32,000 bases of DNA from Candidatus Saccharimonadota bacterium (GCA_022843095.1 JALHOH010000001.1:60001-92000), one strand, 5' to 3'. Positions 7,601 to 32,000 are shown, numbered from the stretch's first letter. A program made the numbers and translations. Notes: generated from the sequence alone by a model not told the origin.

Positions 7601-7630
7601 ACACCGCAGCCAACGCTGCGGTGTTTTGTT
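7601..7630. terminator. bidirectional intrinsic terminator (rpsP / pif1-like convergent junction)
   Basis: ACACCGCAG-CCAACG-CTGCGGTGT (9-bp stem) followed by TTTGTT. It abuts the TAA of the minus-strand helicase gene. Confidence 0.65.
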
Positions 7631-8909
7631 ACAACATGCGGATGAATTGAGACACCGTAGGATCGGTCCGGATGTCGGTCGCGCGCAACGGTCGAAGCAG
7701 ACGAATCCCATCCAACGACCGTGAACGGGAGAGTGCGACATACGTCTGCCCCGCGGCAAACGCGCCTGCACCCAAATCGATCACCACCTGATCAAAGGTC
7801 TTTCCCTGACTTTTATGAATGGTCGTGGCCCACGCGAGGGTGAGCGGAATCTGACGAAAACTCCCCAATGTTTCGCGTCCAAGCGCCCCTTCCGCCACGT
7901 CATACACGCTGCGCGAAAGATTCCAAAGCGAAGGCTCCACGCGCACGGTCGCCCCATCATCGATCGCAACATCCACCCCCTCTTCTTCCACGGCCTCCAC
8001 CGTCCCAAGCGTCCCGTTTACCCAGCGACCCGCCGTATCGTTCTGCACAAACATCACGCGCGCGCCCTTCTTGAGCGTCAGTTCGGCATCTGTCGGTAAA
8101 TCACGCTCTGAAAATCGTCCAGAAATCATGGCAGAATAGGTGCGCCCTTTGCTTTTGAGTCCACGCATCCGGGTTGCGTTGATCGCATCGGCCTGCGCAT
8201 TGGTCGCGGTCAGCACAATCGCTTCTTTCGGCGTTTTTTTGGTGGGCTGGTAGCACGCATTCAGCGCCTGAAGCACATTCGGATCGACGCGCCCATCACG
8301 AATCGCATTCAATAATTGCAAAAACTCGGCGTCACGCTGTCGGTAGACCTTTTCCAATTGAATGGTGGTGAAGGCGCCAAAATCCATCAGTTCACGAAAG
8401 ACGTTTGATGAAAAGAAAAACGGCGTGGGATACACCTCGCGCAAGGCATCCTGTTCATCCCGACGCACGACAGGCGGAAGCTGAAGCAAATCGCCGATGA
8501 AAACAACCTTCACGCCGCCAAATGGCACAGACATCCCGCGCGCATTCCGCAAAAACAGATCCATCGCATCCAACAAATCCGCTCGCACCATGGACACTTC
8601 ATCAATAATCAACACATCCGTCGCTCGGTACACGCGTTCCTCTCGCGCAGCACGCCCGCCGTCGATCGCCTCCTTCAACGTGACTCCTGGGGCAAATTTA
8701 AAAAATCGATGGATCGTTTCTCCGCCCACGTTCAACGCGGCGATCCCAGTCGGCGCAAGCACTACGTGATCACGCTTGGTTTCGAGCCGAAATTGGCGCA
8801 GCAAGGTGGATTTTCCGGTCCCGGCGCGCCCAGTCACAAACACATGGCCGTCCGATGATTCCATCGCCGACAGCGCCGCTTCAAACGCCTCCGATCGCTC
8901 AAGAGTCAT
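7629..8909 (-). CDS. Pif1/RecD-like ATP-dependent DNA helicase (SF1B)
   Basis: Walker A VTGRAGTGKST, Walker B VLIIDEVSMV, FIGDLLQLPPV, and the C-terminal ATTIHKSQGKTFDQVVIDL...YVALSRSRS motif typical of Pif1/RecD-family helicases. Confidence 0.8.
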   Translation of the reverse strand: MTLERSEAFEAALSAMESSDGHVFVTGRAGTGKSTLLRQFRLETKRDHVVLAPTGIAALNVGGETIHRFFKFAPGVTLKEAIDGGRAAREERVYRATDVLIIDEVSMVRADLLDAMDLFLRNARGMSVPFGGVKVVFIGDLLQLPPVVRRDEQDALREVYPTPFFFSSNVFRELMDFGAFTTIQLEKVYRQRDAEFLQLLNAIRDGRVDPNVLQALNACYQPTKKTPKEAIVLTATNAQADAINATRMRGLKSKGRTYSAMISGRFSERDLPTDAELTLKKGARVMFVQNDTAGRWVNGTLGTVEAVEEEGVDVAIDDGATVRVEPSLWNLSRSVYDVAEGALGRETLGSFRQIPLTLAWATTIHKSQGKTFDQVVIDLGAGAFAAGQTYVALSRSRSLDGIRLLRPLRATDIRTDPTVSQFIRML

Positions 8910-8921
8910 GACGTCATTCCG

Positions 8922-11138
8922 TTACACCTGCGCGCGCATCTTTTCAACGTCCTCGAGCTTCACAGAAAGCAATTGCGAGACACCATCGTTCCCCATGGTC
9001 ACGCCATACAACACGTTTGCTTGCGCCATGGTCGCACGATTATGCGTCACCACGATGAACTGCGTTTTATCCGCCAGCGTATCGATAATCTCCGCAAACT
9101 TGCGCGAGTTCGCCTCGTCCAACGCCGCATCCACCTCATCCAACACCACAAACGGAGAAGGATTGGTGGCCATAATCGCACAGATAAGCGCGATCGAGGT
9201 CAGCGCACGTTCGCCCCCCGAAAGGAGCGCAATCGCTTTGTTGCGCTTCCCGGGAGGCGTCGCCTGAATTTCGATCCCAGAGACAGCGTCTTCATCCACG
9301 TCTTCCATCACATTCCCCTCGTCATCCGTTTCCGGCTCCGGATGCACTTCAAGAAAGGTCGCGTCTCCCCCTCCGAACAACTTTTTGAAATACTGCGAAA
9401 ACTCCTGATTCAATCGATGAAACGCAACGGTGCTGCGTTCCCGGATGGTTTGGTCCAGTTCCGCGATCACGACTTCCAATCCCTGTATGCTTTCACGCAA
9501 ATCGTCGGTCTGCTTGGACAAAAATGCAAATCGTTCTTTGGTTTCCGCATGTTCTTTGACGGTTTGCGGATCAATGGACCCGATCCATTCCAATTGCGAT
9601 CGAAGACGCTGAATCTTGGCCGAGGTGTCCGCCGAAATCGGAGCAAGTGCATCGGATGTTTCCGCGAGCAACTCCAACTCCTCCTCCAACCGAGGGGTAT
9701 GCATGCGCACATCGGCTAAAAACGCGTCGCGGCGCGTCTCGAGCCGCGCCCGTTCGATGGACGCCTCCGACACGATCCGTTCTGCCGCTCGCGCCTCCTC
9801 ACGCTTCTTGGACAAGGCGTGTTGTGTTTCAAAAATATGCGTCCGCTTCCCCTCCTCTTCTTTGTTCCACGCATCGAGTCGCGCCTCTGCTTCCTGCGTT
9901 TTTGCCGAAACCTGTAACAAGGCCTCCGCGATTTCCGCAAGCTCTTGCTCCATCGCAGGATCCCGCACGTCGGACGACTCCGGCTCCGGCGCGGGACGCT
10001 GCAGCTTGTGCACCAAATCCTCCGTGAAGGAGATAACCTCCTGAATCCCGGCACGAATCGCCGCAAGATCAGGGGCTTCTGACGCAAGCAATGCGTGCAG
10101 GTGTTCATGCTGAACACGCAAACGATCCACCCCTTCGATAATCTTGGAAAGTGGCAATGGAGCCCACGGTTTTTCGGCACGCACGGCGGCGACGGCCTGT
10201 TTGGTTTCCAACCGCATCTGCCGTTCACGCAGCGACGCTTTTTCTGCAGCAAGCGCATCCAGAGTCTGCCGAAGCGCACGAAACCCATCGCCCGGCGGAG
10301 TCTGCTGCTCCATCATGCGCAACGATTGCTCGAGCGTCTGCGCTTCTGTTTCGCGCGCCGCTCGTTCGGCCTCTGCGGCCGCCACCCGCCCCATCGCGAC
10401 ATGCAAGCCATCACGAATCTCACGCCACGTTCGCCCAACATACGCACGTTCAAGCGCGTACAATTCCGTTTCCACCTGTTCTCGCTGGGCCAGGCGTGAA
10501 ACCTGACGCTCGAGCGTCGTGAGACGCGGACCAATCTCCTGCAACACGACCTCGGTTTGTCGTAAATTTTCTCTCGCGGCATCCAATTTGGATTCCGCCT
10601 GTGCGCGCTTTAATTGAAACGGCTTGAGTCCAAACGCCTCATCAAAAAATTCCTTGCGCTCGCCGGGAGAGGCGACCAGCACCGCGTCCACCATCCCCTG
10701 CCCGATCACAGAATACGTACGCTGGCCAATTCCGCACTGCGCAAGCAGTAACACGACATCCTGCAACCGCGCGGGCTGTCGGTTGACTTCGTATTCGGAC
10801 TGTCCATCGCGATACAACCGTCGCGTAATGACGATTTCGGTGCCAAGTTCCGGTTTTTCTTCATTTTCAAGCGTGATGGACACCTCGGCAAACCCGGATC
10901 GCGCGCGCATGTCCGATCCCGTAAAAATCACGTCTTCCGACTTTTTTCCACGCAATAATTTAAGGCTCTGCTCGCCCATCACCCAGCGGAGCGCATCCGC
11001 CGTGTTGGATTTCCCCGAGCCGTTTGGCCCGACAATGGCGGTGATCCCCTGACGCCCGGAGGCATCCGGAACAAACGCGAGCGCCGTTTTTTGCGCAAAC
11101 GTCTTAAAACCCTGCATTTCTAACTGCTTGAGCCGCAT
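8922..11138 (-). CDS. smc: SMC chromosome-condensation ATPase, unusually short (738 aa), no recognisable hinge
   Basis: N-terminus MRLKQLEMQGFKTFA...ITAIVGPNGSGKSNTADALRWVMGEQSLKLLRG. C-terminus LLSGGERALTSIALICAIMATNPSPFVVLDEVDAALDEAN...FIVVTHNRATMAQANVLYGVTM. A heptad-like Ala/Glu/Arg-rich middle lies between them. ATG 11138 was chosen. The 118-codon upstream extension in the track is Arg/Ser-rich and overlaps the neighbouring gene and its terminator. Confidence 0.85.
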   Translation of the reverse strand: MRLKQLEMQGFKTFAQKTALAFVPDASGRQGITAIVGPNGSGKSNTADALRWVMGEQSLKLLRGKKSEDVIFTGSDMRARSGFAEVSITLENEEKPELGTEIVITRRLYRDGQSEYEVNRQPARLQDVVLLLAQCGIGQRTYSVIGQGMVDAVLVASPGERKEFFDEAFGLKPFQLKRAQAESKLDAARENLRQTEVVLQEIGPRLTTLERQVSRLAQREQVETELYALERAYVGRTWREIRDGLHVAMGRVAAAEAERAARETEAQTLEQSLRMMEQQTPPGDGFRALRQTLDALAAEKASLRERQMRLETKQAVAAVRAEKPWAPLPLSKIIEGVDRLRVQHEHLHALLASEAPDLAAIRAGIQEVISFTEDLVHKLQRPAPEPESSDVRDPAMEQELAEIAEALLQVSAKTQEAEARLDAWNKEEEGKRTHIFETQHALSKKREEARAAERIVSEASIERARLETRRDAFLADVRMHTPRLEEELELLAETSDALAPISADTSAKIQRLRSQLEWIGSIDPQTVKEHAETKERFAFLSKQTDDLRESIQGLEVVIAELDQTIRERSTVAFHRLNQEFSQYFKKLFGGGDATFLEVHPEPETDDEGNVMEDVDEDAVSGIEIQATPPGKRNKAIALLSGGERALTSIALICAIMATNPSPFVVLDEVDAALDEANSRKFAEIIDTLADKTQFIVVTHNRATMAQANVLYGVTMGNDGVSQLLSVKLEDVEKMRAQV

Positions 11139-11182: not shown

Positions 11183-11211
11183 TAAAAACCCGCCACAGAT
11201 GTGACGGGTTT
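11183..11211 (-). terminator. intrinsic terminator after gene 11215-12546
   Basis: Stem AAACCCGCCAC / GTGACGGGTTT (one mismatch) with loop AGAT. On the minus strand it is followed by TTTTTA and begins 4 nt after the TAA stop. Confidence 0.6.
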
Positions 11212-11214
11212 CCG

Positions 11215-12546
11215 TTAACGGATCTCCGGACCAACCAGGAGGAGAACGGTTGCACCGACCCCTCCTGCACGCTGGTCTCCGATCGAGCGGAAGTCGGGGC
11301 CCACGATCGCTCGGAGCCCGATGCGGAATCGCGTCCCGCTCGCAGGTCCAAGGAGCGCTCCCGGCTCCACGAATCCACCGACGATATGCGCCGGCAGTCG
11401 ACCCGTTGCCAGGTCGAGGTACTGCATCCCCGCCGCGCCGAACGCGAACGTGAACGCCGTTCGACCGGTGGCGGTCTGACCGCTTGGATCACGCCAGACG
11501 GTCCATCCCGACTGGTAGCGCACCCCCAGCACCTCGTGGAGGTTGAGTTGCGCCTGCGTCATCTGCCCAGAAGGCATGCCGACGCCGATGCCGAAACCGA
11601 CCTGCCCGCTCCAGTGCGCGTTGATCGGGAACGAGAACTCGGGAGCAATGCCGATCGCGCCCGGCGTGAAGTTCAGATATGGCGGGAGCGAAGCTCCGCC
11701 GTAGACCATGAGATTCACGCCCAGATGCTCTCGCATGATCGCGAGGCGGCGATCCGCGAGGTCGAGACGCCGGCTCTGCGTCACGAGCGACCGATTGGTG
11801 AGCTCCTCGCCTTCGCGACGATGCTCCGCCTCCGCGCTCACCAGTTCCGTGGCGCGACGTTCGGCTGCGGCTTGCGCCTCGCCTGCGATCTGCCGCACGG
11901 CGCTTTCACGCAGCGGACGATCGGTCGAGGAACCGAGCTGGCGCATCACCTCGCGCGGGTCGGCGTTTCGCGCCATTCCCGCCGTGCTCCGCGCCAGGAT
12001 TTGCATCTCGGGCGTGAGGCACACGCCTTCCTGAATCCGGCCGCGCTCCATCGGCACGGTCAACTCCGGATCCCACATGCCGCCGATGGCGCGGCAGACC
12101 TGTTCACCGGTGACAGCCGTCACCTGAGACGCAGGCGGATCGCCGGGCGTCGTGACTGCGGCATCCATGGGAGGCGCCACTACCTCCATCGACGCGTCGG
12201 CCACCGGCGCGCTCGCGTCCATCGTGGGCGACCCCGTGACGGGCGGATGCGGATCCTGCAGGTACGGCGCACACCCCGGAAGGGCGGCGCCAGCCGACAG
12301 GAAGCACACGCTGCAATAGTGTTGCGATGCCGGAGGCTCGGGAACGTCCCGGCACTCCGCAAGCGACGCACGCTCGCGCTGGAATTGCTCGAGCGAGACG
12401 CACGCGTTCTCGGCGTGCTCCTGAAGGTACCGCACCACACAGGCACGGACCGGACCCACTCCCGCCGGGGAGAGGGTCTGAGACGACACGGACGACGCTC
12501 CTGCCACAAGGGCAACGAGGATCGTCCAGAACAGTCGCTGGTTCAT
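11215..12546 (-). CDS. exported Cys-containing protein: signal peptide, coiled-coil segment, Gly-rich beta-strand C-terminal domain
   Basis: ATG 12546 is preceded by GGAAGGAG. Signal peptide MNQRLFWTILVALVAGASSVSSQ. There are 8 Cys in the N-terminal half and a charged helical stretch (AGEAQAAAERRATELVSAEAEHRREGEEL). The C-terminal 165 aa have alternating Gly/aromatic strands (AFTFAFGAAGMQYLDL...). Third codon positions are G/C-rich in this frame. Confidence 0.7.
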   Translation of the reverse strand: MNQRLFWTILVALVAGASSVSSQTLSPAGVGPVRACVVRYLQEHAENACVSLEQFQRERASLAECRDVPEPPASQHYCSVCFLSAGAALPGCAPYLQDPHPPVTGSPTMDASAPVADASMEVVAPPMDAAVTTPGDPPASQVTAVTGEQVCRAIGGMWDPELTVPMERGRIQEGVCLTPEMQILARSTAGMARNADPREVMRQLGSSTDRPLRESAVRQIAGEAQAAAERRATELVSAEAEHRREGEELTNRSLVTQSRRLDLADRRLAIMREHLGVNLMVYGGASLPPYLNFTPGAIGIAPEFSFPINAHWSGQVGFGIGVGMPSGQMTQAQLNLHEVLGVRYQSGWTVWRDPSGQTATGRTAFTFAFGAAGMQYLDLATGRLPAHIVGGFVEPGALLGPASGTRFRIGLRAIVGPDFRSIGDQRAGGVGATVLLLVGPEIR

Positions 12547-12685
12547 CTGGACTCCTTCCTTCTGTCTTGAAAAAGAACCCTCAAGTACCGGATTGCCGAT
12601 ACTTAGACCGCCCAGCCGCCGCGCTGTCTGGAGGAGGGACATCGCGTGACTGGGCGATCAAAATACCGCCATCCCAGGACGAATC

Positions 12686-12714
12686 TGCTTACCAAGAAAC
12701 GGGCGTATTGTCAA
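12686..12714 (-). promoter_or_regulatory. putative promoter for gene 11215-12546
   Basis: Minus strand reads CATCCCTTGACAA with TTGACA at 12714-12709, a 17-nt spacer, then TAAGCA (12691-12686). The extended -35 13-mer is shared with 15604-15616. Confidence 0.35.
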
Positions 12715-12812
12715 GGGATGACGCGTGTCGCCCAGAAACGAAAACACCCGCGAGCAATGGCAGAAACCATCCACTCGCGAGTGTCAGACCTCACGCAGCG
12801 CGTGAGGCGAGA

Positions 12813-13928
12813 TCAGCAGGCCGGCGTCCCGTCCAGGTGGATCGTCGGCTTGGTCGTCCCCGAGTTGGGGTCCAAGCACGACCGAATCGGGAGCGTCCCC
12901 GTGGAGCCGTCCGAGTAGGTCACCTCTGCGCGAAGCGCGTTGATGACCGTCCCCGAAGCGGGCCACGACACGTTGTACGAATCCGCCCCGCACACGGTGT
13001 TCATGCGAACGTATCCGCGCCACGGGCCGGGAACACGGAGATCCGCGTTCAAGGGCGAAGGAACCGGGCCGACTTGCGTCGCCCCGAATCCCCACACCGT
13101 GACGCGCGCGCTCGCGCCGCAAGAATTCGGCACCGCACCGGCGTCCACGATGGTCACCGTGAGACGAAGGGGCTCGCGGCCCGCACCAGCGTCCGACGGC
13201 GGAGGCATCATGCCTCCGGTGCAGACACCTGCGGCGCAGGACTGCCCGCTCGCGCAGGAACGACCGCACGTGCCGCAGTTCGCGACGTCCGTGTACGTGT
13301 TGACGCACACGCCGCCACACATCATCTGTCCGCTGGCCGTGCACGTGGGGCTTCCTCCCGTGCAGGCACCGGCGACGCAGGTCTGACCCGCGTTGCAGGC
13401 GCGACCGCAGCCGCCGCAGTGGCTCGCGTTGGTCTGCGTGTTCACGCAGGCACCGCCGCAGGTGGTCTGACCGTCCCCGCAGCCGGGGTTCCCCCCGGTG
13501 CAGATGCCGGCGACGCAGGACTGACCCGCGCTGCAGACGTGACCGCACGTGCCGCAGTGCATGGCGTTGGTCTGGCAATTGACGCAGGCGCCGTTGCAGC
13601 GGGTTTGACCCTCGCCGCACATGACGCTCGCATCGCTCGCGACGCCGCCGTCCGAGGCGACGCAGGCGCGGGTCTGGGTGTTGCACACCTGACCCGCGTT
13701 GCAGTCGCCGTCCGCGCCGCATCCCGCGACGCAGCGACCGTTGTCGCAACGGTTCCCGACGCCGCAGGCGCCGGCCACCATCGTGCACGAGCCGCTCGCG
13801 TCGCCCACCGGCGCCACGTTGGCGTCGGCGTTGCTGCCACCATCGCCGCTGTTGAAGTCGGCGAGGGGGGCGCTGCAGCCGCCCAGAACCATCGAAATCA
13901 CGAACACGAGACCGAAGCGCTTGTTCAT
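12813..13928 (-). CDS. Cys-rich lipoprotein with three tandem 46-aa eight-Cys modules
   Basis: ATG 13928 is preceded by AAGGAG. Lipoprotein signal MNKRFGLVFVISMVLGG|C. I count 38 Cys in 371 aa. The repeat pattern is C-x6/7-C-x3-C-x9-C-x2-C-x3-C-x5-C-x4-C, three times, followed by a C-terminal beta-rich domain of about 120 aa. Third codon positions are strongly G/C-rich in this frame. Confidence 0.8.
   Translation of the reverse strand: MNKRFGLVFVISMVLGGCSAPLADFNSGDGGSNADANVAPVGDASGSCTMVAGACGVGNRCDNGRCVAGCGADGDCNAGQVCNTQTRACVASDGGVASDASVMCGEGQTRCNGACVNCQTNAMHCGTCGHVCSAGQSCVAGICTGGNPGCGDGQTTCGGACVNTQTNASHCGGCGRACNAGQTCVAGACTGGSPTCTASGQMMCGGVCVNTYTDVANCGTCGRSCASGQSCAAGVCTGGMMPPPSDAGAGREPLRLTVTIVDAGAVPNSCGASARVTVWGFGATQVGPVPSPLNADLRVPGPWRGYVRMNTVCGADSYNVSWPASGTVINALRAEVTYSDGSTGTLPIRSCLDPNSGTTKPTIHLDGTPAC
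13212..13625 (-). repeat. three tandem 138-bp coding repeats (eight-Cys modules)
   Basis: aa 102-239 of the lipoprotein: ..MCGEGQTRCNGACVNCQTNAMHCGTCGHVCSAGQSCVAGICTGG / NPGCGDGQTTCGGACVNTQTNASHCGGCGRACNAGQTCVAGACTGG / SPTCTASGQMMCGGVCVNTYTDVANCGTCGRSCASGQSCAAGVCTGG. The period is 46 aa (C104, C150, C196). Confidence 0.85.
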
Positions 13929-14091
13929 CGCTTTCTCCTTCTTTGCTTACTTGTTGAAAAGGTTCGGAACGTGACGCAACCGCGCGTCCGTCCTCCTCTT
14001 GGCGGGACCATCCGTAGATGATCCATCCGAGAGGAGGGGCGCTCGATACCGTATGTACCGAGCGCCCTACCAGCGTTCTTCCCGACCGGCT

Positions 14092-15399
14092 TCAGAACCG
14101 GTCGAGGATGGGGATCGACAGCGTCACCGTCGGGGTGACCTCCGGAGACGACCCCTGGTGCGTAACCTCGCGACCACCATTCGAAGTCATACGAGCGCTG
14201 AACGTGTTCAGCAACCCGCCTACTTCGGCGCCCACCCCGATCTGGAGGCGCCCGGCGCGGAACAAGACCTCCGCGCGACCGTTGAGGGAAAACCCTCGGC
14301 CGCCGGTGTCCTGTTGGACGTTGGCGAACCGCTCCGGCGAGGTGGCGAAGTGCCGCCCCTGGAAGCCGGCGCGGAAGCCGACCGCCGAGCCGCGCGCCAG
14401 GTAGGTCATACCCAGCCCGTACTCGCCGTACCCGACGGCGTTACCGGCGGCGGCGTTGAAGCCTCCACCGCCACCACCGCAGGCGTTGACCTGGATCGAA
14501 CGGTCGGCATTGACGCCGACGTCGACGCAGGCACCCGCTCCACCGAAGGCCGTGACGCCCCCGAGGCGAGCCTCGAGCGGGATCATCACGCCGCCGGAAA
14601 CGAACGGGCGGACGTCGATGCGCTCGGCGAACGAACCACCAGCCGGAGCGGGACGCTCACGGAGGTCACGGAGATCGTTGCAGATCGGCATCTCCGGATG
14701 CAGCTCGCAGCTGATCATCGGGAAGACACCCGCAACCGCACGATTCATCATTTCCTCCACCTGCGCGAGAGTGAGACCCCCCGCGCTTCCGGGCCGAGCC
14801 ATGAGCGCGGTGATCGCCGCGTTCATGCGCTCGATCTCCGCGTGGAAGTTGCGGCAGCGAGCGAGCCGATCGGCTGGCGCCGGACCCGACTGGGTCGAGA
14901 GCGGCGCGCACAGCGCATCGATCTCGCGCTCCGCATCAGTCACCCGGCCTTCCAGCCGCGTGAGGCGATCGACGATCGCCGTCATCTCGCGACGCAGGGC
15001 GTCGCTCGGAGCCGGAACCGGCGCTCCGCCGACTCCGACGGGCGTGCAGCCCACGAAGACACGGAGGCCTTCGGCCTCCCCACCCGCGGTCGCGACGCGA
15101 CGCGGACGGAAGGTCAGCGACTGCACCGCCGTTCCGGCGGGACACCTCGCACTCGTGCCGGAAATGACCGGCAAGAGCGTCGAGAGACGCGGATGCGCGA
15201 CCGGAGTCGGCGTCCGCGATGCCCGGCACTCGTTGAGCTGCCGACGCGTGTCGCTGAGATCGCTCTCGCACTGCGCCAGCCGCGCATCGGCGGCGGTGCT
15301 GCGAGCTTGCCCCAGAGCCTCGACCGGGGCGACGATGGTCGCCAAGATCGTGAACAGAATCACACGCACCAACTGGTGCAGGAACCGTGCCATCATCAT
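14092..15399 (-). CDS. exported Cys-containing coiled-coil protein with Gly-rich beta C-terminal domain ending in Phe (outer-membrane-barrel-like)
   Basis: ATG triplet at 15399-15391 preceded by GGAAGGAG. Signal/anchor MMMARFLHQLVRVILFTILATIVAPVEALGQ. There are 10 Cys and helical segments (LRREMTAIVDRLTRLEGRVTDAEREIDAL). The C-terminal 180 aa are Gly/aromatic-rich alternating strands (GYGEYGLGMTYLARGSAVGFRAGFQG...VTLSIPILDRF*). Confidence 0.7.
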   Translation of the reverse strand: MMMARFLHQLVRVILFTILATIVAPVEALGQARSTAADARLAQCESDLSDTRRQLNECRASRTPTPVAHPRLSTLLPVISGTSARCPAGTAVQSLTFRPRRVATAGGEAEGLRVFVGCTPVGVGGAPVPAPSDALRREMTAIVDRLTRLEGRVTDAEREIDALCAPLSTQSGPAPADRLARCRNFHAEIERMNAAITALMARPGSAGGLTLAQVEEMMNRAVAGVFPMISCELHPEMPICNDLRDLRERPAPAGGSFAERIDVRPFVSGGVMIPLEARLGGVTAFGGAGACVDVGVNADRSIQVNACGGGGGGFNAAAGNAVGYGEYGLGMTYLARGSAVGFRAGFQGRHFATSPERFANVQQDTGGRGFSLNGRAEVLFRAGRLQIGVGAEVGGLLNTFSARMTSNGGREVTHQGSSPEVTPTVTLSIPILDRF

Positions 15400-15581
15400 G
15401 ATGTACTCCTTCCGTGAGGTTGGCTCCCTCACGGAGCCGAGGTTTGTTGCGTTGAAAGTCCTTTCAGTGCTACCCACGCATCAGTGCGCGGACAGTCCCT
15501 GAAGCCATCCCGCCTGCCTGGGACAAGGAGGAGGTATCCCAAGCGCCGGAATGGCTTCAAACACTGTCATCGTGACGACAT

Positions 15582-15610
15582 AACGTATCAAAAAACGACA
15601 ATTTTGTCAA
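15582..15610 (-). promoter_or_regulatory. putative promoter for gene 14092-15399
   Basis: Minus strand reads CATCCCTTGACAA with TTGACA at 15610-15605, a 17-nt spacer, then TACGTT (15587-15582). This implies a leader of about 175 nt. Confidence 0.35.
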
Positions 15611-15637
15611 GGGATGGAAGACATCCTTGAAAACCAA

Positions 15638-15669
15638 CAAAAAAACCGCCCGTTTTTGGGAGGTTTTTT
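15638..15669 (-). terminator. intrinsic terminator after wzz-like gene
   Basis: AAAAAAAACCGCCC-GTTTTT-GGGAGGTTTTTT (one mismatch in the stem). On the minus strand it is followed by an 8-T run, 17 nt after the stop at 15686. Confidence 0.6.
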
Positions 15670-15685
15670 GATCAGACTCTGCCTT

Positions 15686-16297
15686 CTACCCTCGTTTGGA
15701 CACGCTCCACAGCACCCAACCAACCCCTAAAAAGAACCCAAGAAGCGCCCCATACGCCGTGATACTGACAAACTGCGGACGGGCAAACCATCGGGAATCC
15801 AGTGGCGCATCGATGACCTGCATGCGTACGCCATTCCCAAAGTAGTCCTGCGCCAATTTTGCGATCTCGGAAGCCGCAGAAACCACCAGCACACGCGCCT
15901 GCAATCGATCTTCGTGATACGTCGTGACCGTCATGATCCCGGTTCCAGCCGCGACGGATGTTTCGATGGTTTCTCGCCATTTTTCACGTTTCTTATACTC
16001 GTCCACCGGAAAATACGTGGCATCGAATTCCTTTGCCGCATCCAACGTGTCCGCATAAAAAGACGTGGAATACACCAGTTCCTGCAGGGATGTGGCGATC
16101 CGTTCCGTAGCCTTGATCGACGTATACGGATCAACGCTCCCGGCGTTTGGCTGGGTAATCAGCAACCGCACGGATGAGGAGTACTGACGCGGCAAAAGAA
16201 GGCTAAATCCAAAGGCAAGCACGGCGCCAAGCACCGCCATCCCGATCAAACTCCGCCAGGCGTGGGCCATATGACGGCCGTACTGCGGGGAAGACAT
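15686..16297 (-). CDS. Wzz-like polysaccharide chain-length determinant family protein (two TM helices flanking an extracytoplasmic domain)
   Basis: N-terminal TM LIGMAVLGAVLAFGFSLLL is followed by PRQYSSSVRLLI (Wzz-type motif after TM1). C-terminal TM VSITAYGALLGFFLGVGWVLW. ATG 16297 is preferred over the track's GTG at 16339. Confidence 0.5.
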   Translation of the reverse strand: MSSPQYGRHMAHAWRSLIGMAVLGAVLAFGFSLLLPRQYSSSVRLLITQPNAGSVDPYTSIKATERIATSLQELVYSTSFYADTLDAAKEFDATYFPVDEYKKREKWRETIETSVAAGTGIMTVTTYHEDRLQARVLVVSAASEIAKLAQDYFGNGVRMQVIDAPLDSRWFARPQFVSITAYGALLGFFLGVGWVLWSVSKRG

Positions 16298-16380
16298 GTG
16301 GTCAGTATAGCACAGTTCCTTCCAGACGGAAGCGCGCACCCTTCCCCTTTTTCCCGGCTTCCCGTAGGCTCAACACAGGT

Positions 16381-16746
16381 ATGTCTCTCCGCATGGAAGC
16401 TGGATTTGAACACCTCCGCGAAGCCTTGGCCGAAACCCTTCGTGAAGAGGTGGATTTTCCGCGTGGCATGTTGGTTACGGTGCTTGGCGCAAAAATGACG
16501 CAAAACACCGCTCATGCGCGCATCGTTCTGTCGGTTGTGCCAAACACGGCGCAAGAAACCGTCCTCGAAACGCTGCGGGAGTTTCAGCATGAGGTCAAAG
16601 ACGGCTTGGCAAAACGCCTGCGCTTGCGCCGGATTCCAAACCTACACTACGTCTTTGATGAAACCGAAGCAGACGCCGCCGTCATCGAAGAACATCTAAA
16701 AAATCTCCGCGCATCCGGAGAAATCACGCCCCCAGACGCAGAATAA
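16381..16746 (+). CDS. rbfA: ribosome-binding factor A
   Basis: LAETLREEVDFPRGMLVTVLGAKMTQNTAHARIVLSV and LAKRLRLRRIPNLHYVFDET match the RbfA pattern (R-x-P-x-L-x-F-x-x-D). Confidence 0.8.
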   Translation: MSLRMEAGFEHLREALAETLREEVDFPRGMLVTVLGAKMTQNTAHARIVLSVVPNTAQETVLETLREFQHEVKDGLAKRLRLRRIPNLHYVFDETEADAAVIEEHLKNLRASGEITPPDAE

Positions 16747-16784: not shown

Positions 16785-17681
16785 TCAGATCACCTTCACG
16801 CCGATCGCCTCGTGCGTGAAGGTGGAGCGATCGTCCGTCACGGGGCGAATCTCTCGCATCGTGACAACGTCGCCCTGCTTCACGCAGTGGAACGTCCCAG
16901 CCGGAGCCAAGATGTTCTTGTAGTAGAGCTTCACGAGCTCCACCGTCTTGGGCCCGCGGCGCACGACGATCGCGCCCGTGCCGCGCACCGGGTTGAACCA
17001 GCGCACGCGGCCCCGTCCGACCGGGATGTCCTGGACGAACACCTCGTCCGAGACCTCCTCGAACCCCCTGCCGTCGAACGGCGGGAGGGACCCGATCTCG
17101 TGCGGAAACCGCTCGTCCATGAAGGCGAGCAACTCCGCGGAGAAATCTCCGCTGGTGTCGCGCCCCTCGAGCTCGGGGCAGCGATAGATCTCCGCCGGGG
17201 TCGAGGACGCACCTTCGTCGTTCTCGTACCCGCGGCAAAGCGCCATCGCGCTCTCCTGCTGGACGAAAAACGGGATGCCATGCTGGACGACGACGCCCAG
17301 CTGCACGCGGATGAGCTTCCCGTCCAGAAGCTCCATCACCGTGCACTGCCCCTGATTCTGATCGATGAACACGCCGTCGCCGCGCATCGGCAACGGCTTG
17401 CAGAAGGCGCTGATGAAGTACTCCGCCTTCGTCGGATCCTCGGTGCGGGACTTGTCGATCCGACGCTTCTCGAGCACCTGGAAGCCGTCGCGCGTCTTGT
17501 CGACGTAGACCGTGGCGCGCTGCATCAGGAGCGTCTCCGGGTACACCACCCGGAGCACGATCTTGTCCTCGGGACGCACGCGCGTCCCGTCCATCCCCTG
17601 GATTCGCTCCCCGTGACGGGGGGTGAACGGGATGATCTTGTTGCCGCGGACGATGTGACCGAAGACCTCGAGGTTGTTCAT
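16785..17681 (-). CDS. hypothetical protein with C-terminal cold-shock-like (OB-fold) segment
   Basis: 298 aa with an ATG preceded by GGGAG. It is more GC-rich than its neighbours. The C-terminus GRVRWFNPVRGTGAIVV...VKLYYKNI...VKQGDVV...EAIGVKVI resembles the CSD pattern G-x-V-K-W-F-N-x-x-K-G-F-G-F-I. The N-terminal 220 aa have no motif I recognise. Confidence 0.6.
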   Translation of the reverse strand: MNNLEVFGHIVRGNKIIPFTPRHGERIQGMDGTRVRPEDKIVLRVVYPETLLMQRATVYVDKTRDGFQVLEKRRIDKSRTEDPTKAEYFISAFCKPLPMRGDGVFIDQNQGQCTVMELLDGKLIRVQLGVVVQHGIPFFVQQESAMALCRGYENDEGASSTPAEIYRCPELEGRDTSGDFSAELLAFMDERFPHEIGSLPPFDGRGFEEVSDEVFVQDIPVGRGRVRWFNPVRGTGAIVVRRGPKTVELVKLYYKNILAPAGTFHCVKQGDVVTMREIRPVTDDRSTFTHEAIGVKVI

Positions 17682-17771: not shown

Positions 17772-17800
17772 ACTCTAGCAAAATTTCGTGTTTTTGTCAA
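17772..17800 (-). promoter_or_regulatory. putative promoter for gene 16785-17681
   Basis: Minus strand reads TTGACA (17800-17795), a 17-nt spacer, then TAGAGT (17777-17772). Confidence 0.45.
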
Positions 17801-30079: not shown

Positions 30080-32000
30080 TTAGCGTTTCTTCTTCATCGA
30101 AGAAAGAAACGCTGTGACCGCATCCGCCGAAGCGGGTGCGGTCGAGTTCTTTGCCTCCGGCGCCGGCGCTTTTGGCGCGGGCGAGGGCGGAACGGGCTTC
30201 GGCGCCGCTTTCGACGGCTCCGAAACCACGCTTACTTCCATCGGGATGATCTCACGACCATCCCGGTAGAAGATCACGGGGTAGATCATAGCGGGCTTCT
30301 GGGTATCCCCATAAGCCCAGCCAATCGCCCACACCCCGTCGGTGAGCGTCGTGGGAAGGATCACCGTCCCCTCCCAGTTGACGTTCCCCTTCCAGGACAA
30401 ATCACGGACGGTGATCCGAAGCCCTGGAACGGTTTCGATCCAGAAGCGTTCCTTTCGCCGCTCATCGAGCGACTCCAGGCGGGATTCGGCGGCGCCCTTC
30501 GCGGGAAACACCTCGAACCCCTCGGCTTTTTTGCCGCTGCTTACGTAGACGCGGCCAGCGTCCACGAGCAGAAAGATCTGTCCTTGCGGAAGCGATTGGA
30601 TCTTCTCCAAGATCGTGTCGCGTCGCGCAAAGGCCTCTTGCTGCGCCCTCGCCTCTTCGGCTTTCTTATCAGCCAAAGATTTGAGTGCCGCTACCGCCTC
30701 GCCAAGAAGCGCATTGGCCTCCTGCGTCCAGGTCTGGAGGTCTTCCAGTCCGGACGGCAGGTACTCGTAACGCTTGCTGTCGACGCGCGAACGGAGGTCG
30801 CCGTCCAGATCGTACCAACCCTCGCGGGACTGGACGCTCCGGAGCGACTCCTGCGCTGCCTCGGCCATGGCCTTGGTCTCGTCGAACTGCTTCTGCTTGA
30901 TCGCCTCCTCGCGGATGCTCTCGAGCTTGGCAGCCGACTTCGCACGCGCGGCATTGGCCTCCTCGCGAACCTGGAACCACTTGCCCTCGAACCAGGGGTC
31001 CGAGGAGTAGTACCGGTAGTCCTTGAGGTCGACCGCGCCAAAGGCGACGAGTGACGTTCCGTCGATGACCGAGATGCCGTACCGGCATTCGATGATCTCC
31101 GGAACGACCGACGTCGGATCGGCGGGGTCCGGCAGCCCGATGGCCGGACGGCCTTCGGTCGGCCAGTTGTCCCAGAGGCACTTGTTCGCGCGGCTCACGC
31201 AGCGCGTCTTGAGCTCCGGGATGTCCCGGCCGCTGACGGTGTCGTAGTAGCCGAAGGGCACTACGACTTCCACCACGCGACCTCCCGGGAGCTTGACCCC
31301 CGCGTCCGGCAGCTCGCGCCAGCCGTGCGCGGTGATCGTGTCTCGATCGAGCGTAATCCGCGGGGTGTGACCCTCACGGTACTCGACCCGGAACGTCCGA
31401 CCGATCACCGTGATCTCGTCGGGGTTCTCGCCCATGACGAGCTCGACCAATTCCGCGTCGGGCGCGGGTGGCTCGAGCGCTGCAGGGTCAACGACCTCTG
31501 CCATTCGCCGAGCGCCACAAAGACACTTCTTCAGATAGGCGCCGACCTCCTCCGGACTCATCACCGTGAAGATCGTCTCGCCAGCACGCGTGTTGAGCGC
31601 GCGAGCTTCAGTCTGCGCGTAGCGCGGTTGTGCCGCGAGCCACGCGCAGAAGATGTTTGCCGCCTCGACGTGCTCGGGATCGGCGACCGCCTCCTCCTTG
31701 ATCTTCTGCCCGTTGAAGAACGTCTCGGTGGTCGAAACCACGGAGTCCTTCGCCGAGTCGAAGTACGGGCGGAGACCGGTCTTCCGCTCCACGAGCTGCG
31801 GGGCGACGTCGGCGAGCAGCTGCGGATCGACCGCCGTGGCCATCGAGACGAGGCGCAGGGTCACGAGACGACCCCGACGATCCTTGATCTGGATGTCCTT
31901 CGGTAGGCCGACGAGCCACTCGGGACCGCCGCGCACGACCGACTCACGCGCGAGCTCGCGCTCGACCGGCGAACCGTTGATGTACCGGCCGTACTGGCTC
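30080..32000 (-). CDS. C-terminal part of a DEAH/HrpA-like helicase with long non-canonical C-terminal region (5' end outside window)
   Basis: The frame stays open from 31936 to the window edge; the track M at 31936 is an internal GTG. GPEWLVGL...RLVSMATAVDPQLLADVAPQLVERKTGLRPYFDSAKDSVVSTTETFFNGQKI parallels the HrpA OB-fold and downstream segment (..W..ELVETSR..A.IDPEW.EP.A.HL.KR.YSEPHW....G.V.A.E.V..YG). It ends in a Pro/Ala/Lys-rich tail. The region is GC-rich. Confidence 0.45.
   Translation of the reverse strand, partial: SQYGRYINGSPVERELARESVVRGGPEWLVGLPKDIQIKDRRGRLVTLRLVSMATAVDPQLLADVAPQLVERKTGLRPYFDSAKDSVVSTTETFFNGQKIKEEAVADPEHVEAANIFCAWLAAQPRYAQTEARALNTRAGETIFTVMSPEEVGAYLKKCLCGARRMAEVVDPAALEPPAPDAELVELVMGENPDEITVIGRTFRVEYREGHTPRITLDRDTITAHGWRELPDAGVKLPGGRVVEVVVPFGYYDTVSGRDIPELKTRCVSRANKCLWDNWPTEGRPAIGLPDPADPTSVVPEIIECRYGISVIDGTSLVAFGAVDLKDYRYYSSDPWFEGKWFQVREEANAARAKSAAKLESIREEAIKQKQFDETKAMAEAAQESLRSVQSREGWYDLDGDLRSRVDSKRYEYLPSGLEDLQTWTQEANALLGEAVAALKSLADKKAEEARAQQEAFARRDTILEKIQSLPQGQIFLLVDAGRVYVSSGKKAEGFEVFPAKGAAESRLESLDERRKERFWIETVPGLRITVRDLSWKGNVNWEGTVILPTTLTDGVWAIGWAYGDTQKPAMIYPVIFYRDGREIIPMEVSVVSEPSKAAPKPVPPSPAPKAPAPEAKNSTAPASADAVTAFLSSMKKKR

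Follow-up and report, generated by a model that had tools for sequence, protein, structure and literature searches.

A three-gene block of exported, cysteine-rich proteins at a variable rbfA–smc site of a Candidatus Uhrbacteria genome: a probable envelope cassette from a Myxococcota-type donor

Several described systems bear comparison with a block of three genes that we have analysed in a 32,000-nucleotide stretch of a genome deposited as Candidatus Saccharimonadota bacterium (GCA_022843095.1, JALHOH010000001.1:60001–92000; this whole stretch is called the window below). The block occupies positions 11183–15669 of the window, between smc and a wzz-like gene, and encodes three exported cysteine-rich proteins, here called A, B and C. 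The MXAN_6577-like proteins of Myxococcota (NF041328; PF04885) resemble B in having repeats of the form C-x-G-x-C-V-N-x-x-T-x-x-x-x-C-G-x-C-G-x-x-C, in their very low lysine content and, in several homologues, in a lipoprotein-type signal. They differ in that B is found in a Patescibacteria genome, has 371 amino acids compared with 400–650 for most homologues, and ends in a 135-residue domain that is unmatched in the 120 best homologues. In Peribacteria, which belong to the candidate phyla radiation (CPR), cysteine-rich extracellular proteins that vary between strains have been proposed to act in attachment (PMC4736985). These proteins are exported, cysteine-rich and strain-variable, as are the products of the block; however, they average about 1,655 amino acids and were not described as foreign, whereas the block consists of three mid-sized genes of foreign signature at a mapped site (PMC4736985). 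Strain-specific genomic islets at intergenic hot spots are similar to the block in composition, in their absence from the syntenic position and in occupying a slot with varied cargo, and islets of surface genes that are specific to one strain and occupy a variable slot are already known as a phenomenon in CPR genomes. The block differs from such islets in that it has no integrase, tRNA, transposase or flanking repeat and carries its own duplicated promoter.

Two further comparisons are structural. OmpM- and SlpA-type tethers are stalked outer-membrane anchors composed of a coiled coil and a C-terminal β-barrel. Proteins A and C appear to follow the same order of parts as these tethers and as autotransporter-like designs (head, helical stalk and C-terminal β domain), and A ends in Phe, as discussed below; the differences are that A and C match no SLH, OmpA, OMP_b-brl or autotransporter family, have a much smaller β domain, and come from a host phylum thought to be without an outer membrane. 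The TraA/TraB system of Myxococcus uses a cysteine-rich repeat surface receptor and a β-barrel partner for cell–cell recognition. The likeness of the block to TraA/TraB would be one of analogy only, and no PA14, MYXO-CTERM or OmpA domain was detected in B or elsewhere in the block.

The explanation that we favour, with a probability of roughly 0.6, is that the block is an envelope cassette of three genes, about 4.4 kb long, that was acquired from a Myxococcota-type donor, is inserted in the rbfA–smc slot of one Uhrbacteria lineage and has a role at the cell surface. The initial annotation of this DNA had proposed a horizontally acquired surface module, and its claim of horizontal acquisition is in agreement with the deviating composition, the deviating codon and amino-acid usage, and the absence of the genes from the syntenic site in about 45 relatives.

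The three genes all lie on the minus strand, with A at 14092–15399 (435 amino acids), B at 12813–13928 (371 amino acids) and C at 11215–12546 (443 amino acids), as originally annotated; the translations contain 10, 38 and 8 cysteines respectively, and a recount reproduced the annotated numbers exactly. The G+C content of the block is 0.666, compared with 0.555–0.606 in block-free 4.5-kb windows and about 57% in the flanks. In windows of 500 nucleotides it is 0.61–0.71 in the block and 0.52–0.60 in the flanking genes, and the step in G+C coincides with the ends of the open reading frames (ORFs), at approximately 11215 and 15350. G+C at third codon positions (GC3) is 0.81 in A, 0.86 in B and 0.78 in C, compared with 0.62–0.69 in the flanks and 0.59–0.70 in 16 host-like genes, and the values at first and second positions (GC1 and GC2) are likewise above those of the host-like genes. 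The tetranucleotide distance of the block from the rest of the window is 0.35, where block-free 4.5-kb windows give 0.12–0.17. The block had been picked out as GC-rich, and the windowed G+C, GC3 and tetranucleotide distance as now computed all deviate from the flanks. Among the competing frames over the block, GC3 is highest in the minus-strand frames. Long ORFs on the plus strand across the block were therefore rejected as antisense artefacts of the high G+C, since it is the minus-strand frames that hold the coding-type GC3 maximum.

Codon usage was compared with that of two contigs that carry B homologues (GC 0.66–0.72), one of which is named Polyangiales. When A, B and C are pooled, their relative synonymous codon usage (RSCU) correlates with that of these high-GC, Stig1-bearing contigs at r = 0.88–0.92, and with that of host genes at 0.66. 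The result for smc is the opposite, with r = 0.36–0.41 for the high-GC contigs and 0.87 for host genes. There are only two lysines in the 1249 residues encoded by the block, both in B, whereas host proteins mostly contain 2–6.7% lysine; the median among B homologues is 0.47%. Tryptophan is absent from A. Selection on codons alone would not account for these features, because GC1, GC2 and the amino-acid usage are shifted too, and the shifts are the mark of a long residence in a high-GC genome. The near-lack of lysine in A, B and C may exceed the effect of GC, and could for example confer resistance to lysine-specific proteases.

The host is placed in Candidatus Uhrbacteria (Patescibacteria/CPR) by the relatives of its SMC protein, which are found in Candidatus Uhrbacteria/Patescibacteria genomes and are 55–68% identical over their full length; the source contig, at 683,555 bp, is as long as a CPR genome. 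The smc gene (8922–11138, minus strand, 738 amino acids; Pfam SMC_N, 2.3e-63) is the conserved left flank of the slot that holds the block. At 738 residues the SMC protein is short; this is a trait of the clade and a truncation is excluded, because the relatives match over essentially the whole length (query residues 1–735). The conserved right flank is rbfA (16381–16746, plus strand; TIGR00082, 6.9e-10, below the cut-off). Synteny was analysed by tblastn of 18 window proteins against 62 related loci at E < 1e-5. The gene order Polysacc | spoIID | o218 | DHH | rbfA | smc | KH | trmD | P-type ATPase is common to about 45 of the 62 loci, and in most related loci rbfA is divergent from smc and immediately upstream of it, with a spacing of approximately 70–110 bp. 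No homologue of A, B, C or the wzz-like protein was found in any of the 62 loci. The block is best read as a lineage-specific insertion, since about 45 syntenic loci lack A, B, C and the wzz-like gene, and the slot holds other cargo elsewhere: the same slots in other relatives contain an AAA ATPase with a membrane protein, a GC-rich gene of the metallo-β-lactamase fold, or a methyltransferase. In detail, the rbfA|smc slot of locus L005 holds the metallo-β-lactamase-fold gene (9040–9909, GC3 0.74), and those of L016 (7314–9956) and L030 (7129–9997) hold an AAA ATPase and a family-less, membrane-anchored protein of 526–557 amino acids with eight cysteines.

The wzz-like gene (15686–16339, minus strand) encodes a protein of 217 amino acids with two transmembrane segments, which scores 23.1 bits against Pfam Wzz, where the cut-off is 25.5. 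It had been taken as the right-hand landmark of the block. The gene and its terminator are indeed present there, but the gene is not an ancestral neighbour, the true conserved flanks being rbfA and smc. Its GC3 of 0.65, base composition and codon usage are host-like, yet it is absent from the slot in relatives, and it is therefore probably an older or separate insertion. Three other proteins, orf298, a DUF3108-like protein and a Pif1-like helicase, also have no match in the 62 related loci. Because these window genes match no related locus, rbfA has insertions on either side of it in the window, and a further one lies downstream of smc.

Protein B is a predicted lipoprotein. Its signal, MNKRFGLVFVISMVLGG|C18, fits the pattern [LVI][ASTVIG][GAS]C when read from the sequence, and is followed by an 8-Cys module, three 46-residue repeats of the Stig1/MXAN_6577 type, and a β-rich C-terminal domain (residues 237–371; 135 amino acids, four cysteines, one of which is the final residue). 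The repeats are encoded by a 138-nucleotide direct repeat present three times (13206–13622), with 8–9 cysteines per unit, in register. B scores 58.5 bits against Pfam Stig1 (PF04885; cut-off 24.1, 9.7e-16, three stretches) and 115.9 bits against NCBIfam NF041328, the MXAN_6577-like cysteine-rich proteins (cut-off 100, 1.4e-33). The earlier statement that no family could be named for any of the three proteins is thus incorrect for B. A sub-cutoff match to the MiiA surface-protein motif (E 0.028) was also seen, and no other Pfam or NCBIfam model matched. All of the 597 homologues of B align to the repeat region alone, covering 24–67% of B, and 20 of the 21 that are named come from Sorangium, Polyangiales, Myxococcales or ‘Deltaproteobacteria’. 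Residues 237–371 have no match among the 120 best homologues, and similarity to the family does not extend over the full length. A scan of metagenomes with B found one distant Stig1 locus. We found nothing in the literature on MXAN_6577, and nothing useful on Stig1 in myxobacteria. B adds a new member to a family that has been described but not characterised, and does so in an unexpected phylum. On the basis of these repeats and of the composition, the donor was most probably a high-GC bacterium of the Myxococcota type.

Proteins A and C, searched whole or split, have no match in Pfam, NCBIfam, PHROGs, PADLOC or PDB sequences, so that for these two the initial view that they could not be classified stands, as does the statement that no catalytic motif could be recognised: none of the three products matches a catalytic family. 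When the separated domains were compared with Pfam at E ≤ 10, only coiled-coil noise was obtained, and no SLH, OmpA, OMP_b-brl or autotransporter family. A has a Sec signal peptide and five local cysteine pairs (44/58, 86/118, 164/182, 231/240 and 291/307), a helical or coiled-coil region at approximately 133–248, and a Gly-rich, amphipathic-β C-terminal domain at 257–435. Its C-terminus, ...TVTLSIPILDRF, has Phe as the last residue and Asp at position −3. C has a Sec signal peptide, a 6-Cys N-terminal domain, a variable Pro/Ala-rich linker (approximately 106–146), a small Cys151–Cys176 domain, a long helix (approximately 179–274) and a Gly-rich amphipathic-β domain (276–443); it ends in ...LLLVGPEIR, with no aromatic residue. 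The layout common to both is therefore a signal peptide, local cysteine pairs, long helices and a Gly-rich β domain of about 170 amino acids. The secondary structure in the AlphaFold2 models, helices followed by strands, agrees with the pattern in the sequences. The period-2 hydrophobic moment of the C-terminal domains exceeds that of shuffled sequences (z = 4.2 for A, 3.5 for C and 4.2 for B), although a β-sandwich would score alike. The two proteins were also compared with each other, giving E values of 0.55 in BLASTP and 0.42 in hhalign; the best alignment pairs their helix-to-β transitions (REHLGVNLMVYGGASLP with AERIDVRPFVSGGVMIP). This alignment is suggestive of paralogy, but not significant.

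A word-indexed search of 5.8 billion clusters with A returned only the protein itself. A full HMMER search of 1.84 billion representatives gave three marginal matches at E of about 1e-4, which cover only the helical and N-terminal parts; two are coiled-coil repeat proteins and one is membrane-fusion-like, and all three were rejected as compositional. On these searches A is an orphan without relatives. C has a single relative in the 5.8 billion clusters (P0003), which is 96% identical and is encoded on a 1,406-bp contig, L068, of run SRR31730576; a metagenome scan with C found nothing. The DNA of C and of L068 differ by 46.5 synonymous and 19.5 non-synonymous changes, a ratio of non-synonymous to synonymous rates (dN/dS) of 0.14. 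In the β domain dN/dS is 0.03 (21 synonymous and 2 non-synonymous differences), and in the Pro/Ala linker 0.67. C is therefore a working protein under purifying selection, with a spacer that is free to vary. In the alignment of window 11215–12620 with L068 1–1406, there is no difference in the first 105 codons and in 45 nucleotides of the 5′ untranslated region, while the remainder has a synonymous divergence (dS) of approximately 0.18–0.24. This mosaic pattern suggests recent recombination between strains.

Each of the three genes carries readable expression and export signals, as had been annotated, and in all three products the cysteines are paired locally. A and C begin with the hydrophobic export signals MMMARFLHQLVRVILFTILATIVAPVEALG and MNQRLFWTILVALVAGASSVSS, and B has the lipobox VLGG|C; the Shine–Dalgarno sequence is GGAAGGAG before A and C and AAGGAG before B, all strong and confirmed by direct reading. 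Gene C is followed by an intrinsic terminator (11183–11211, minus strand), a hairpin and then a U-run, with a folding energy of −20.3 kcal/mol that is far better than those of shuffled sequences (z −5.2), which bears out the description of this element as the block's own terminator; the independent contig L068 carries the 5′ part of this terminator as well. The terminator of the wzz-like gene (15638–15669, minus strand; −15.9 kcal/mol, z −3.7, with A- and U-runs beside it) marks the right edge of the cassette. Two further minus-strand hairpins lack a U-run: one 3′ of gene B (12788–12808; a 9-bp GC-rich stem, −16.7 kcal/mol, z −2.6) and one 3′ of gene A (14037–14067; a perfect 13-bp stem, with −37.1 kcal/mol and z −3.5 for the region).

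Promoter-like elements had been noted in two of the spacers, and these prove to be copies of one element. P1, upstream of A (15582–15616, minus strand), consists of CATCCCTTGACA, a 17-nucleotide spacer, an extended −10 TG and TACGTT; P2, upstream of C (12690–12720, minus strand), reads CATCCCTTGACAA-N6-CGTTTcTTGgTA. The two are direct copies of a 31-nucleotide element (12690–12720 and 15586–15616) that are 77% identical. Its core, CCCTTGACA, occurs in the window only at these two sites, where 0.12 occurrences would be expected by chance, and a search of the related loci for the shared element yielded no copy. The pattern TTGACA-N14-TGn-TAnnnT has two sites in the window, one being P1 and the other the promoter of orf298.

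The way in which the cassette might work can be outlined as follows. Two copies of one sigma-70-type promoter would drive transcription, one before A, probably reading through B, and one before C. All three products would be exported from the cytoplasm. B would be lipid-anchored through Cys18 and display its three disulfide-knotted Stig1/MXAN_6577 repeats and its β-rich end domain. A and C would each present a cysteine-stapled head on a helical or coiled-coil stalk, with the Gly-rich amphipathic-β domain of about 170 residues as a candidate anchor: in a diderm donor, this would be inserted in the outer membrane, while in the CPR recipient the wall or the S-layer might hold it instead, or conceivably the membrane of a partner. 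The stalks would then hold the cysteine-rich parts off the cell, and the resulting surface assembly, resistant to proteases, would make contact with another cell or with a surface. The products probably decorate the cell surface, and a function in contact or adhesion would agree with the proposal made for the cysteine-rich extracellular proteins of other CPR genomes (PMC4736985).

A number of observations count against this explanation. No homologue of A or C was found in Myxococcota or elsewhere, apart from the 96% identical variant of C. No trio was seen near B homologues, in seven neighbourhoods of five homologues, which have unrelated contexts typical of Myxococcota and contain no gene resembling A or C. 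The assignment of the donor accordingly draws on the repeats of B and on composition, because homologues of A and C and the trio itself are absent; and B is at most about 45–50% identical to any homologue, over the repeats only. The AlphaFold2 models of A and C have predicted local distance difference test (pLDDT) values of 47.8 and 36.3, falling below 40 in the C-terminal domains, and Foldseek with the low-confidence model of A found nothing at E ≤ 0.001. Patescibacteria are generally regarded as being without an outer membrane, and for this reason an anchor of the barrel type would have no obvious home in such a host. The spacers within the block have a host-like G+C content of 0.51–0.59. 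No integrase, transposase, tRNA or flanking direct repeats were found at the borders of the block (the sole tRNA in the window is at 2229–2303), and the joins at both edges are known from the assembled contig alone. Searches of plasmid and phage DNA gave no match to the block, IMG/VR viral contigs contained no relative of A or C, and none of A, B, C and the wzz-like protein matched the anti-phage defence models of PADLOC.

Four other explanations were considered, all of which are less well supported than acquisition of an envelope cassette. The block could be silent or decaying cargo, namely an outer-membrane module of a diderm (two small β-barrels and an outer-membrane lipoprotein) that remains unassembled and has no role in a monoderm CPR bacterium. 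This would fit the Phe that ends A after a series of amphipathic strands, which resembles the β-signal of outer-membrane proteins (OMPs), and also the Gly-rich and β-rich C-terminal domains, the lack of relatives in other Uhrbacteria, and the un-ameliorated composition, which suggests a recent arrival. We nevertheless regard it as unlikely: all three ORFs are intact, with strong Shine–Dalgarno sequences and promoters; C is under strong purifying selection between two samples, its second copy being on a flankless contig; no OMP family was matched even at E ≤ 10; the last residue of C is not aromatic; and a disulfide pair of A sits within the putative strands. Alternatively, A, B and C could be native, fast-evolving surface genes, their high GC3 being due to codon selection and their lack of homologues to rapid divergence. 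The spacers and promoters look host-like, orf298 nearby has a GC3 of 0.91 and the same consensus type of promoter, and CPR bacteria are known to have cysteine-rich surface proteins that vary between strains (PMC4736985). However, GC1, GC2 and the amino-acid usage, with almost no lysine, are shifted beyond what codon selection would produce, about 45 relatives lack the genes at the syntenic slot, and the nearest relatives of the B repeats are in Myxococcota, not Patescibacteria. A native origin therefore seems to us less likely still.

An assembly or binning chimera, in which a fragment from a high-GC organism has been joined into an Uhrbacteria contig, would explain why the step in composition is sharp and why the one further copy of C comes from a flankless contig of 1.4 kb, and the joins are indeed known only from assembly. 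It would however need two joins in the interior of a contig of 683,555 bp, both of them exactly intergenic, matching the neighbouring genes in orientation and lacking any border repeat that could cause a misjoin, at a slot that is a natural insertion site in relatives. We consider such a coincidence very improbable. Nor do we give much credence to the proposal that the products are secreted antagonists, that is, cysteine-rich bacteriocin-like or membrane-attacking factors, as opposed to a surface structure. All three are exported and cysteine-rich, their location is a variable island, and amphipathic β domains might in principle be capable of entering the membrane of a target; but there is no match to any toxin, immunity or defence family, the spacers contain no small immunity-like gene, and the lipobox of B would retain it on the producing cell.

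The preferred reading, an acquired envelope cassette, is of interest because CPR bacteria depend on other cells, and for most lineages, including Uhrbacteria, neither the partner nor the machinery of contact is known. A cassette that encodes exported proteins only is thus a lead to the partners and the surface of Uhrbacteria, and it adds two orphan protein families, one of which (C) is demonstrably under selection. The Myxococcota signature usefully points towards a possible partner but is no evidence that there is one; we found nothing in the literature on associations between Uhrbacteria and Myxococcota. A bolder proposal, whose probability we would place between those of native fast-evolving genes and an assembly chimera, is that this Uhrbacteria bacterium lives as an epibiont on a diderm resembling a myxobacterium, from whose envelope it has captured a part, namely a Stig1-repeat lipoprotein and two stalked β-domain proteins of families not seen before. 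It would display these proteins, or place their β domains in the outer membrane of the partner, in order to recognise the partner and keep hold of it. If this were true, the cassette would name the host lineage for a CPR group that is without one, and a monoderm would be using proteins of the outer-membrane type outside their normal setting.

Other parts of the window also vary between relatives. The Pif1/RecD-like helicase gene (7629–8909, minus strand), located between smc and the KH gene, has no positional counterpart in the related loci; the spacing between smc and KH ranges among relatives from about 0.5 to 6 kb, which makes this a further variable slot. On the other side of rbfA, orf298 (16785–17681, minus strand) has the highest GC3 in the window, 0.913, and encodes a singleton protein with no family match, in which a C-terminal stretch, GRVRWFNPVRGTGAIV, resembles a cold-shock domain by eye. 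Its promoter (17772–17800) is the second TTGACA-N14-TGn-TAnnnT site mentioned above, and relatives lack the gene at their rbfA|DHH slot; orf298 is probably a second, independent foreign gene. An ORF of 618 amino acids at 30080–31936 (minus strand) has a GC3 of 0.81, and its RSCU correlates with that of the Stig1-bearing contigs at r = 0.91–0.92 and with that of the host at 0.68. It has no family in Pfam, NCBIfam or PHROGs and, with 5.8% lysine, is rich in this residue, unlike A and C; the ORF may represent a third foreign segment. Finally, among the related loci L001–L049, many GTDB records are titled ‘uncultured Gammaproteobacteria bacterium’ (CAY*/CAZ*) and have the Uhrbacteria gene order and 60–68% SMC identity, and these titles appear to be wrong.

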